DNA from: Eledone cirrhosa
Lineage: Eukaryota
Assembly (NCBI GenBank): GCA_964016885.1
Contig: OZ024751.1
Span: 27,032,001 to 27,096,000 of the forward strand
DNA length: 64,000 nucleotides
Direction of reading: 5' to 3'
The notes under the pieces are model-generated. The model was not told where the DNA came from and ran no database searches. It saw only the letters and a list, made by a program, of their open reading frames with translations. Below are positions 14,701 to 62,797 of the stretch, piece after piece. The translations under genes and the position numbers were made by a program. Within the stretch, counting starts at the first letter, position 1. Each line of letters opens with the position of its first letter.

Positions 14701-15991
14701 CTAGGCCAGATGTGAAATATAGCCCCTTGACTTCCTTCAATATGGTAATAGGCCCAGGATGAAATGAAATATGTAGACACCCAATACTGGAAATAGAGCC
14801 AAGATCAAATGTGAAGTGCAGGCCCTATGCCTGGCCATTAAGTATTTTAATAATCAGTAATTACAAATGATTTATATGTAGGTTATGTGTATATATGTAG
14901 TGTATGTGATGTAATTACATGTAAGAGAACAGAATAGAGGAGAGGTCACTTCTCAAAGTTGTTGGCCCATGTCAGCTGACCTTCCTATAGTCTGGCTTAG
15001 ATGTGTCCCAGTGGATTGTGGGAGATAGGGTATGCAATAAAGTATGTTGTGAGACAAAAAGAGCAGACACAGTGGTGTATGAGTGAGTTGTGAGACAGAT
15101 AGATAACATAGTTGTGTGTGAAAGAGTAGGAGTGGGAGTATAACAATGAGAAGAGGGAACAGAACCACAGTCAGTCAGGGCTGTCAGATATATCTAATAA
15201 AATGTAACAAACTTTTCAAAAGGCAGCAAATTGCATGAGAAAGTAACCCAAAACAACATTTTTGTAAGTAAATTAAATAAATAAATATATTAGTAAAATA
15301 GAAAAAACAGTAGAAAATGCTAAAGGGATTTTCTCAGAATAACAGCAAAACATTTATTTATATATATATAAATAAATAAACAGACTAAATAAAGATGGCG
15401 TAGGCATACAATGCAATGGGAGGAAACATAATAGCACCACTGACGATGTTGCAGATGTGCAACGAAAGAACTTTCTTAGACTATATATATGTGTTTGTGT
15501 CTATATTGTATCTGTATTTTTGACCGTTGGTCAGTCAATGGTAACATTGAGGACCGAATAAATTAAATTAACCGATATAAAGGACACAGAAGCGAAAACC
15601 AACCAAACAGTGAGTGTGATCCGTTATTAATTCTAGCCTCCCCAAGTATAACAATATATATATATTTTTTTTTTTCCCGTTCTTTGCCAGGGAACGTTTC
15701 CAGGAACCAAAGTATCGTCTTCCTGTCTTCCTCTGGTTGCAACGTTTTTTGAAATATCCACTTCTGCGTTTACAGATTGACTTTGTTAGTTTCAGAAGAT
15801 CCCGTTAAGGGTGAAAGCAGCGATTCTTTGCTTAAACTTTAATCTGTTATTTTAATAAATATATATATATATATATATATATATATATATATATATATAT
15901 ATATATATATATATATATATATATATATATATATATAATATATATATATATATATAATATAAGATCAAAAGATGGTTAAAAGAGTTCCCAG

Positions 15992-16062
15992 TATTTTATT
16001 ATGCGCATTTCAAAAACAAATATCATCATGGGATGATATTTGCGTTCTCATCAGATAAAATA
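15992..16062 (-). ncRNA. Minimal type I hammerhead ribozyme (inverted copy of 17182-17252)
   Basis: Reverse complement has the same intact core; stem II caaatatcatc/gatgatatttg is a perfect 11 bp. Confidence 0.8.
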
Positions 16063-17181
16063 GGGAGACATGATATGAAGTTTAAAAAACACTTGTGAGC
16101 AGTGAAGTTTTAAATTAACATATGAAAAATAAATTAAGATGGATATATGAGATTGGGGAAAAGAGAGGGGGGTGTAAAAGGTAAGAAAGAGGAAGAAATA
16201 AGAGTAAAGGATGGTGGGGGGGAGTATAAGAAGGAAGGATGAGAGAAGAGGAGAGATAGGTGATAGAGAGAGAGAGAGAGAGAGAGAGAGAGATAGCCTT
16301 TACAACTGAGAAAAAATATTGTCTCACAGAGAGAAATTAAAAAGCCGTTGGAAGATAATAGATAATTTAAAAGATTTTGAAATTAAAAGTTAATGAGGTT
16401 TATGCATGAAGAAAAAGGAATTAAGAATAGTATTAAATTAAGGTTTGTATATTGAAGGGTTGAATAATATGTGCGAAGAAAAATATTTCGTAAACATATA
16501 TACTTTTTGATGTTAGATATTTTTTTCATTAAACATTCTTTTTTCTTCTCTCCTTCTGCGCTCATTTTAAACATACTATTTACGTATACATATTACAATA
16601 CATAAAAACAAACTTAAACCCTAACTAATTCCTCTAAATTCATGACTCATTTATTCTTCTCCTTCTTTTCACATTATATCTTTAATATCATTAATATTTT
16701 TATTTTAATAATACATATTAATAAATTCTTTTTCTTCGCACATATTATTCAACCCTTCAATATACAAACCTTAATTTAATACTATTCTTAATTCCTTTTT
16801 CTTCATGCATAAACCTCATTAATTTTTAATTTCAAAATCTTTTAAATTATCTATTATAATAGATAATTTAAAAGATTTTGAAATTTTGGAAAGATAATTA
16901 TCTTCCAACGGCTTTTAAATTTCTCTCTGTGAGACAATATTTTTTCTCAGTTGTAAAGTCTATCTTCTCTCTCTCTATCACCTATCTCTCCTCTTCTCTC
17001 ATCCTTCCTTCTTATACTCCTCCCCCACCATCCTTTACTCTTATTTCTTCCTCTTCCTTACCTTTTCCACCACCCCCTCTCTTTTTCCCAATCTCATACA
17101 TCCATCTTAATTTATTTTTCATATGTTGATTTAAAACTTCACTGCTCACAAGTGTTTTTTAAACTTCATATCATGTCTCCC

Positions 17182-17252
17182 TATTTTATCTGATGAGAAC
17201 GCAGATATCATCCCATGATGATATTTGTTTTTGAAATGCGCATAATAAAATA
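17182..17252 (+). ncRNA. Minimal type I hammerhead ribozyme
   Basis: tattttat-CTGATGA-gaacgcagatatcatc/ccat/gatgatatttgttttt-GAAA-tgcgca-TA-ataaaata: 8-bp stem I, long stem II, palindromic short stem III, AUA triplet. Confidence 0.8.
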
Positions 17253-17769
17253 CTTGGAACTCTTTTAACCATATTTTGATCTTATATTATTTATACTCCA
17301 GTCCTACAAACTGTAGAGTGCTACTTATCCGATATTTGCATTGCTTTATTGTGCTACAATAAAACTCACCTCCTACATATATATATATAAGGTGCCCATG
17401 TGGCTAAAACCAGTATGATAAATTTCTTCTTTAGAATGGACATACGGGGGAACTACCCCCCAGAAACGATCGTAAAATAATGAGTTTTACTATGAATTAA
17501 CCGTTTTTTGTTTAATTTCATTGTTTTCACTATTTGTATATATATGTGTATATATATATATATATATATATATATATATATATATATATATATATATATA
17601 TACTGTAGTACAAGCTTCATAGAAACATCCAACGGTAAGAGCACTCAATCCATAGTATAAGTTATGTAGAATAGTTACAAGAATGACATATAACCTTTTC
17701 TCCCCCCCCCCCCCATTCCCCCAAGAAACAGTAAAGACAAAAGATAAATCCCTAAACTACAGCACATAT

Positions 17770-61469: not shown

Positions 61470-62030
61470 GGTACTTTTGTTGTGACACCTACACAACCAC
61501 TTTACAGAGTGGGTTGGGTACTTTTGTCGTGACACCTACACAACCACTTTACAGTGTGGGTTGGGTACTTTTGTCGTGACACCTACACAACCACTTTACA
61601 GTGTGGGTTGGGTGCTTTTGTCGTGACACCTACACAACCACTTTACAGTGTGGGTTGGGTGCTTTTGTCGTGACACCTACACAACCACTTTACAGTGTGG
61701 GCTGGATGCTTTTGTCGTGACACCTACATGACCACTTTGCAGTGTGTGCTGGGTGCTTTTGTCGTGACACCTACACAACCACTTTGCAGTGTGGGTTGGA
61801 TGCTTTTGTCGTGACACCTACATGACCACTTTGCAGTGTGTGCTGGGTGCTTTTGTCATGACACCTACACAACCACTTTGCAGTTTGGGTTGGATGCTTT
61901 TGTCGTGACACCTACATGACCACTTTGCAGTGTGTGCTGGGTGCTTTTGTCATGACACCTACACAACCACTTTGCAGTGTGGGTTGGGTGCTTTTGTCGT
62001 GACACCTACACAACCACTTTACAATGTGGG
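61470..62030. repeat. 47-bp minisatellite expanded from a SINE segment
   Basis: ttttgtcgtgacacctacacaaccactttacagtgtgggttgggtac, contiguous with the SINE at 61300-61470. Confidence 0.9.
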
Positions 62031-62159
62031 CTGGATGCTGTTTTGTTGTAAAACATAACTTTACAGTGTAAGAAAGGTGTGGACAGAAGTGGGTGGGTAA
62101 ATATAGTGGTTAAGAGGTGCCTACAAGATGTATGTTTGAGTCCGTGCACATTGGAAGGC

Positions 62160-62585
62160 ATGACTCCTGTATAATGCCAAAGATTTCGATCCTGTGTCAT
62201 TGTCTTAGGAGGTGCAATTGCACAAGGTCACCTCATCCCATGTCTTTCTGGGTCTTCCTACACCATAGCTTCCACCAACTTTGATCACCCTGCACTTTTT
62301 TATACAGCTGTCATCCTTCATATGCATCATGTGACCAAACCAATACAATCTCCTCTCCCCACACTGCATCTAATCCCCCTAATGCCTAATTTCTATCTCA
62401 GTTCATTTACGCTTTACCATTCATGTATATTACTATTACACATCCATCGGAGCATGCAGGCTTCATTTCTTTCCAATCTTTGCAGGTCCTCAGCACACAG
62501 TGCCTAGGTCTCACTACCATGTAACATTGCTGTTCATATACATGTATCGTACAATCTGCCCTTCAATTTAAGGGAAAAACCTTTT
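62160..62585 (-). pseudogene. RTE LINE 3' fragment
   Basis: Reverse complement resembles the RTE C-terminus (gtaggaagacccagaaagacatggg = GRPRKTW). Confidence 0.65.
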
Positions 62586-62614
62586 ACATATATATATATA
62601 TATATATATATATA

Positions 62615-62797
62615 ACGAAGGAAATGTGGTGAGGAACCAGGTGGACCATAACGCACCAAAGTACTCAATACTTAGGGTAGTAGAGTGGGTAATAGGAACG
62701 AGTAGGACCCCGACGGCTGAGCTCAAGCCGTTTCGACGGCTAATTCTAGCCGTCGAAACGGCTTGAGCTCAGCCGTCGGGGTCCTACTCGCTCCTAT
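62615..62797 (-). mobile_element. Fold-back element, same family
   Basis: 51-bp arms (62692-62742 and 62747-62797), 4-nt loop, one mismatch; (TA)n on both sides. Confidence 0.8.

Follow-up and report, generated by a model that had tools for sequence, protein, structure and literature searches.

How does an insertion come to consist of two copies of one sequence, joined head to head, with an extra tail at one end only? This question is raised by a stretch of 64,000 nucleotides (nt) from Eledone cirrhosa (GCA_964016885.1, contig OZ024751.1, positions 27,032,001 to 27,096,000 of the forward strand), hereafter the window, in which many such fold-back inserts lie in or beside (TA)n runs and some carry minimal type I hammerhead ribozymes. 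The window has 34% GC, and (TA)n and other simple repeats are abundant in it. We conclude that the inserts are probably 5'-truncated, dead-on-arrival insertions of Penelope-like elements (PLEs) of the Hydra clade, or of non-coding riders of these elements, in which a bulged hairpin may fix where reverse transcription starts. As a conserved motif the tail hairpin is well supported, and its role as a start signal is plausible.

Fold-back inserts with a one-sided tail

A sequence-only reading of the window had listed nine inserts. All nine are present, each with inverted arms and a one-sided tail, and the layout ascribed to them (an inverted copy, a 5'-truncated sense copy and a tail) recurs in 9/9. 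The list proved too short, since there is also a tenth fold-back at 21385-21620, a doubtful eleventh at 37786-37900, and at least five solo tails. The inserts and related pieces are the following:

15954..17378, plus strand: fold-back E1; short-end arm 15954-16501 (sense on the minus strand), spacer, tail arm 16711-17294, tail to 17378; (TA)n on both sides
17295..17321, plus strand: E1 tail hairpin, 50 nt past the hammerhead cut; the inverted arm ends about 4 nt before it
20809..21273, minus strand: fold-back E2; 1-nt centre; hammerhead cores at 20996 (minus) and 21173 (plus); hairpin 20869-20890 (minus)
21385..21620, minus strand: fold-back E10, absent from the earlier list; decayed hammerhead; decayed hairpin 21423-21448 (minus)
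23258..23287, minus strand: decayed solo tail of the E6/E8/E9 family
25747..25803, minus strand: solo short-end copy of the E6 subfamily with the 3' half of a hammerhead, between (TA)n runs
27062..27460, minus strand: fold-back E3; hammerhead with a U3-A8 core at 27305 (minus); long tail in which a hairpin is only partly recognisable
29871..29897, plus strand: solo tail hairpin from a further family, followed by (TA)n after 55 nt
30222..30420, plus strand: fold-back E4; hammerhead with decayed stem II in the short-end arm only (core 30303, minus); hairpin 30354-30376
37786..37900, plus strand: doubtful fold-back E11 with a decayed hairpin-like tail
43864..43886, plus strand: solo tail of the E4 family
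48700..48845, minus strand: fold-back E5, too short for a hammerhead; hairpin 48735-48768 (minus)
51093..51291, minus strand: fold-back E6 with the hammerhead 3' half only; hairpin 51139-51164 (minus)
51327..51436, plus strand: fold-back E7, the retained part without a hammerhead; hairpin 51374-51395
51461..51713, minus strand: fold-back E8 with a hammerhead 3' half (long stem III, GUC triplet); hairpin 51507-51532 (minus)
57249..57274, minus strand: solo tail, E10 family, with a (TA)n run on each side
61148..61179, minus strand: decayed solo tail hairpin with (TA)n following after about 45 nt
62615..62797, minus strand: fold-back E9, of the E8 family with a different centre; hairpin 62661-62686 (minus)

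Every unit joins two copies of the element's end head to head; one arm stops before the hairpin, and the other passes it to reach (TA)n. The earlier statement that the inserts lie mostly between (TA)n runs holds in general and fails for E3, which has no (TA)n at its tail end. Tails are about 160 nt long in E3 and otherwise about 65-90 nt in the window, and target-site duplications are unreadable in the window's (TA)n flanks.

Palindromes of this kind could also be assembly chimeras or DNA transposons resembling miniature inverted-repeat transposable elements (MITEs), which we regard as highly improbable here. The arms are near-perfect copies of each other in E2 and about 95% identical in E1; the substitutions and indels between the E1 arms argue against a chimera, as do the common outer ends and differing centres of the related copies E6, E8 and E9. 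We further examined read support on 51060-51760, to which 33,901 contigs from run X1 and 30,486 raw reads from run X21 were aligned. This material contained 413 joints, of which the 15 detailed were fold-backs with other centres, almost all from X1, so that read-derived contigs show many distinct fold-back joints. Loose ends of contigs and reads from the same species place (TA)n at both ends of the E8 family (51080 and 51538), and 33 contigs from another organism's run (X5) matched parts of the interval. The run search listed no RNA run with the interval, and among its small-share rows X4 and X5 were the ones used. Since X1 may derive from the same sample as the assembly, and 51060-51760 is nowhere spanned in full by a listed read or contig, a point in favour of chimeras, it is the layout of the family that is supported and not each locus. 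One fold-back pair from the metagenome loci described below, L145, likewise looks like a mirror artefact. As for MITEs, their criteria do not fit a tail that extends past the inverted repeat at one end alone, nor such variable centres.

A bulged hairpin in the tail

The tails had been described as unpaired, which is not so. Eight of the nine named inserts contain a hairpin of the form RCUC-stem-loop-stem-UN-GAGY-RC, with a 2-nt UN bulge, and in these eight and in E10 the inverted arm stops 4-9 nt before it. We scanned the window with two descriptors, both written after its tails had been viewed. The loose one gave 12 matches, against 2.9 +/- 1.8 (maximum 8) in 30 shuffles, and the strict one 8, against a mean of 0.08 (maximum 1) in 200 shuffles. 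(TA)n lies 43-69 nt past the GAG in 11/12 loose matches, compared with 26 of 174 background sites, a set that includes these 11.

The same hairpin occurs outside the window. Among six Hydra consensus sequences in the PMC8557442 supplement, inspected by eye, it is perfect in three: Hydra-1_Ajap (two copies), Hydra-2_Ajap and Hydra-2_Amil. Six 8-mers from the hairpin 3' half occur 25 times in that supplement, and they belong to a hairpin in 4/4 Hydra occurrences and to a string resembling one in 1/21 elsewhere. A metagenome scan with a hammerhead-only pattern returned at least 120 loci; among the matches listed, the hairpin follows 34 of the 121 with enough downstream DNA. The corresponding figure was 1/117 in a control made of loose hammerhead pattern matches in viral contigs, treated as chance; the specific hammerhead pattern had no match in viral contigs.

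A covariance model built from 8 metagenome hairpin loci only gave 14 window matches at E up to 5, of which 11, including the top 9, are tails, and none in 66.9 kb of control sequence. In the 8-row alignment pairing holds in all 59 cells. Two inner pairs have changed at both positions and six pairs are constant, and the covariation score was reached by 0/500 shuffles. When window and metagenome rows were combined (17 rows), inner cells were paired in 59/68 cases versus 37 +/- 3 after re-dealing, in a count made by script in which one row, L176b, was wrongly parsed and so counts against pairing. Rfam gave no family for the tail hairpin.

Element ends relative to the hairpins

To which positions do the two kinds of end map? 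Starting from the 135 metagenome hammerhead matches listed, we set aside 13 without downstream DNA, 24 outside the three largest families and 3 references. Of the remaining 95 copies, 60 stop at the hairpin or short of it, 32 extend to about 55-75 nt past its start, and 3 fall in between; the short ends lie 3-9 nt before the hairpin. Fifteen metagenome fold-back pairs were found, and among the 13 assessable ones the hairpin is on one arm in 11, on neither in 2 and on both in none. One of the two hairpin-less pairs has a variant hairpin, and the other is the mirror-like L145. Flanking strings of 14-20 nt are common to both sides in 6/10 assessable pairs, which we read as putative target duplications.

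In copies that read through the end (L139, L176, L123, L190 and Hydra-1_Ajap), the first hairpin is followed 65-85 nt later by a second. One family (L123/L190) offers both kinds of copy; in it three short ends lie just before hairpin 1, and the single long end (L179) lies about 5 nt before hairpin 2. L176 has a (TA)n run 4 nt before hairpin 2. With two starts at two hairpins, the tail would simply be the stretch between the starts.

One alternative is snap-back, in which a single complementary DNA (cDNA) folds and copies itself until it stalls at the hairpin. Self-priming has been proposed for Penelope palindromes (PMC3846280), and the 1-nt centre and near-identical arms of E2 would suit it. 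A copy of the tailed cDNA cannot, however, contain sequence that is missing from that cDNA, and the tail-less arm reaches further upstream than the tailed arm by about 55 nt in E4 and by 12 nt in E8 (an estimate from the loose ends of reads). This speaks against simple snap-back of the tailed cDNA; a variant with self-priming on the antisense template is compatible with these arm lengths, and we rate snap-back overall as quite unlikely.

The hairpin might also act as DNA, either as a site recognised or cut by the endonuclease when a tandem intermediate is resolved, in which case the ends come from cleavage, or as a promoter or translation signal in a 5' leader. Tails have been ascribed to endonuclease-mediated resolution (PMC8557442), a Drosophila tail is needed for endonuclease recognition (as cited in PMC11167929), and in full-length copies 30-60 nt separate the hairpins from the ATG that follows. 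The rarity of G-U pairs in the hairpin stems is compatible with such a role as well. Yet in one reconstituted PLE the tail ends map to reverse transcription starts on RNA (PMC11167929), and covariation in a stem bulged on one side only fits a single strand. We consider a DNA role unlikely.

Probable assignment to the Hydra clade

The sequence-only reading took the inserts for PLE end-products in (TA)n; this is borne out, and the clade can be specified as Hydra. It had also raised the question whether the arms lead to open reading frames (ORFs) with reverse transcriptase (RT) and GIY-YIG domains. Such a lead exists for the E10 family in the form of an endonuclease relic and was not found in the four inserts tested:

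59950..60277, minus strand: decayed linker and GIY-YIG endonuclease of Hydra type (60277-60005, with two stops), adjoining the 3' half of an E10-family hammerhead

The relic lies just upstream of the hammerhead half, contains the CxCx5C motif, and is matched in tblastn by the ORFs of L176 and L139 with E=6e-9 and 4e-7, respectively. These two loci, L176 on the plus strand and L139 on the minus strand, have frames of 714 and 724 codons directly after a hammerhead and two hairpins, and both frames show DKT, CxCx5C and RWK (RWR in L139), which are listed as Hydra features in section 11 of PMC8557442. In L192 the endonuclease end directly precedes the hammerhead and hairpins. Pfam gave no match for three Hydra-type ORFs; a protein atlas placed L176 among HTH_animal/GIY-YIG clusters, which bear no clade name, and by eye L176 is similar to the Hydra rows of Fig. 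S1. Hydra families, one of them from Octopus bimaculoides, insert preferentially into (TA)n (PMC8557442 supplement), and the window families share this preference. Families other than E10 are provisionally assigned to Hydra by their hairpin, hammerhead form, layout and (TA)n context. All the window families are new sequences without intact ORFs and, on this assignment, new members of the Hydra clade.

The claim that none of the inserts encodes protein agrees with the absence of Hydra-type protein similarity in the four named inserts compared by tblastn (E 0.4 or worse). The same search gave no support to a GIY-YIG-like reading that spans the E3 hammerhead, nor to a C-terminal-like one in E2. 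We also rejected the Naiad clade, which lacks a canonical hammerhead and has an N-terminal endonuclease; in the window hammerheads are present and the relic lies just upstream of one.

Most window families could, alternatively, be small non-autonomous retrozyme-like elements with an RNA cycle of their own, which we hold to be somewhat unlikely. More than 450 nt upstream of the E1 hammerhead show no Hydra coding similarity, the E8 family is very abundant (the X1 contigs above), and an ORF-less unit with hammerhead and hairpins exists in the metagenome loci L123, L179 and L190. Conversely, the window contains no tandem direct array, self-comparison giving head-to-head pairs and dispersed copies only among the matches listed, and the centres vary widely among copies (the 413 joints), as random truncation predicts. 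Such elements would moreover be compatible with the reading of the inserts as truncated Hydra-clade or rider copies, if they used the same protein. The non-autonomous option has to be weighed family by family.

Several observations touch on this subject in their own right. The ORF-less unit is roughly 250-300 nt long, with two hairpins and a hammerhead (L123, minus strand, 1-300; L190, minus strand, 90-420), and is a candidate non-autonomous rider of Hydra elements. L176 (plus strand, 290-2900) has a seemingly intact Hydra-type ORF, (TA)n between its hairpins and a partial repeat of the RT region past the stop. In the window, 60872-61093 (plus strand) matches the RT of a Hydra-type ORF weakly (E about 0.4-1), on the strand opposite to the endonuclease relic, and may be a second decayed Hydra-type piece.

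A two-start model and the points against it

On the reading of the inserts as truncated copies of Hydra-clade PLEs or their riders, a GIY-YIG endonuclease would make a staggered cut in AT-rich or (TA)n DNA, and both 3' ends would prime reverse transcription. Both cDNAs would truncate and then be joined head to head. The element's protein would bind the hairpin, fixing a start just 5' of it, and the second hairpin copy, about 65-75 nt downstream in the full-length RNA, would set the other start. More specifically, we propose, at just short of an even chance, that the tandem bulged hairpin is a cis recognition and start signal for the Hydra-clade RT and for the non-coding elements that hijack it, with a start about 5 nt upstream of each copy. 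Priming twice, once at each of two signals, would then account for the PLE tail as well as for head-to-head insertion. A precedent exists in Anolis. There the PLE protein, a predicted dimer, cleaves both strands of the target and extends them, beginning at two positions inside the RNA between which the tail lies; hammerhead cleavage is not needed (PMC11167929).

A number of findings weigh against the hairpin as a structured signal and against its proposed role. The E3 tail does not parse into the hairpin, and since the descriptors were derived from the window's own tails, the enrichment in the window is partly circular. Energy folding gives E4 and the solo tail at 43864 without the bulge and E8 in another register; the hairpins of E1, E2 and E7 fold no better than shuffles, and the register of the bulge can shift. 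Near-invariance of the outer stem means that this part could be conserved as sequence and not as a helix. The covariance model missed E1, E2, E3 and E7, and most metagenome matches, among those listed, belong to two close families. In the Hydra consensus sequences viewed by eye the hairpin is partial in Hydra-1_Amil and Hydra-1_Crog, and Hydra-1_Obim does not cover the site; the lone non-Hydra 8-mer occurrence with a hairpin-like string lies in the middle of the 3' untranslated region of Naiad_Mmer. The long end just before hairpin 2 comes from one family with one long copy (L179, compared with L123/L190) plus L176, and no read-through copy of the three large metagenome families was found among the matches listed. 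Finally, by sequence similarity the E10 family is the only one in the window tied to Hydra coding sequence.

Hammerheads in the inserts

Four families had been said to carry a type I hammerhead. This holds for E1 and E2, where it is intact in both arms, and for E3, with a U3-A8 core such as that described for Schistosoma PLEs (PMC4209133); in E4 it is decayed. For E1 the features are:

17182..17252, plus strand: hammerhead, minimal type I with intact core and palindromic stem III, cut after 17244
core at 16054, minus strand: mirror hammerhead

A relaxed type I descriptor gave 10 matches in the window, 5 of them with a stem II of at least 3 bp, compared with means of 0.78 and 0.09 in 100 local shuffles. 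The five are both arms of E1, both arms of E2 and the left arm of E3; the right arm of E3 has a core substitution. E4 keeps the core, stem I and stem III but has a decayed stem II, and its tail arm begins at the cleavage triplet. The hammerhead is absent or cut off in E5-E9, E6, E8 and E9 retaining the 3' half only. For E8, loose contig ends supply a strand complementary to its stem II, and the preceding letters would suit a U3-A8 core if the next letter were U; because of this complement, the E8 family probably carries a hammerhead whose 5' core lies just beyond the truncation. No Rfam hammerhead model matched the window hammerheads, Rfam returning only microsatellite-driven microRNA noise. 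Matches at 1380, 11603, 50509 and 59322 lie outside fold-backs and have no stem II, and the three inspected have no tail; we attribute them to chance.

The hammerheads belong to the parent RNA. Whole inserts fold with 70-91% of their bases paired, and their hammerheads are therefore probably inactive in read-through RNA, where each is predicted to pair with its own inverse.

Other features of the window

The window contains long open frames that are rich in S/T/P, with poly-Q and zinc-finger-like stretches:

6484..9573, minus strand: open frame of 1029 codons, from the ORF listing
23516..24886, minus strand: open frame
43075..43404, minus strand: open frame, with a weak FYVE_2 match at 43078-43404 (E=0.0014, below cut-off)

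These frames and the window suggest exons and introns of an animal gene, which we presume to be piccolo/bassoon-like. If so, the fold-backs would be intronic sources of long double-stranded RNA.

RT relics are present as well, one of which matches RVT_1. Beside them lies an abundant repeat family (25849-25948, 26736-27064, 29345-29670, 30862-31065, 31357-31876, 32338-32655, 37269-37776 and 61302-62414); within its last fragment, 61446-62069 is amplified as a 47-bp tandem array. The repeat at 1819-2049 resembles short interspersed elements (SINEs) and is a head-to-head fold-back whose last 37 nt are on one arm only, without hammerhead or hairpin. It has relatives at 25002-25067, 25501-25622 and 53691-53827, and we take it to be akin to octopus tRNA-derived SINEs. 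At 2274-2408 a short unit occurs twice in tandem, the first copy forming a perfect hairpin with a similar GAG motif at its end and no bulge. A non-repeat island at 46290-46370, within a 5 kb (TA)n array, has GAGU followed by (TA)n 43 nt on and is possibly another decayed solo tail.

A 300-bp repeat pair (28321-28617 and 38232-38526) is 94% identical in opposite orientation, each copy with an AT-rich palindrome and CA/TACA flanks, and a 56-bp repeat (22689-22744 and 29726-29781) is 93% identical, again in opposite orientations. At 11330-12040, by appearance presumably a decayed mariner-type transposase relic, there is a hammerhead-like string without stem II.

Significance and comparison with known systems

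PLE reverse transcriptases are the closest retroelement relatives of telomerase. How they choose template and start site is largely open. One PLE has been reconstituted, and its binding motif is bounded only to 172 nt (PMC11167929). A hairpin of 25 nt that covaries across phyla and keeps a fixed distance to both genomic ends would offer a precise target for mutation. It could also serve as a marker for short Hydra-type fragments and non-coding riders that Rfam does not detect. Should the hairpin have no role in starting, the window would hold an ordinary cluster of truncated PLE copies.

The hairpin seems to be undescribed. We found no earlier description in the literature searched, including the accessible text of PMC8557442, PMC3846280, PMC6765202, PMC7229834 and PMC7761336, nor a mention in that of bioRxiv 10.64898/2026.07.22.740005 or PMC13282606. 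This negative covers text; figures, Repbase, Dfam, subscription papers and Lunse et al. 2017 (PMC5785218) may mention it.

Among known systems, animal non-LTR (long terminal repeat) retrozymes are likewise non-coding, carry a type I hammerhead and are tied to PLE ends (PMC7229834; bioRxiv 10.64898/2026.07.22.740005). They are defined by tandem direct repeats, unlike the window inserts (bioRxiv 10.64898/2026.07.22.740005), and according to PMC7761336 they lack any conserved motif that would point to their helper element. Poseidon PAc of Anolis offers two internal starts that bound the tail, cutting and extension of both strands, and a hammerhead that is dispensable in vitro; it belongs to another clade, and by eye its S1 has no such bulged hairpin (PMC11167929).

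The fold-back architecture itself is already published (PMC8557442, PMC3846280). The canonical PLE unit has an inverted pseudo-LTR and a tail of 30-40 bp (PMC3846280; PMC8557442, Fig. 2 legend). Like it, the inserts studied here have a head-to-head truncated copy and a tail at one end; unlike it, they have tails of about 65-90 nt in the window and no ORF between the arms. Target duplications, a further point of likeness, are suggested only where flanks are readable, as in the metagenome pairs above. The word 'hairpin' is absent from the main text of PMC8557442, and its Hydra section gives no tail structure. The closest likeness is with the Hydra-clade PLEs (PMC8557442, Craig et al. 2021), which share with the window the preference for (TA)n, the type I hammerhead at the 3' end, the CxCx5C linker and presence in octopus, and in whose own consensus sequences the hairpin is visible (PMC8557442 supplement).

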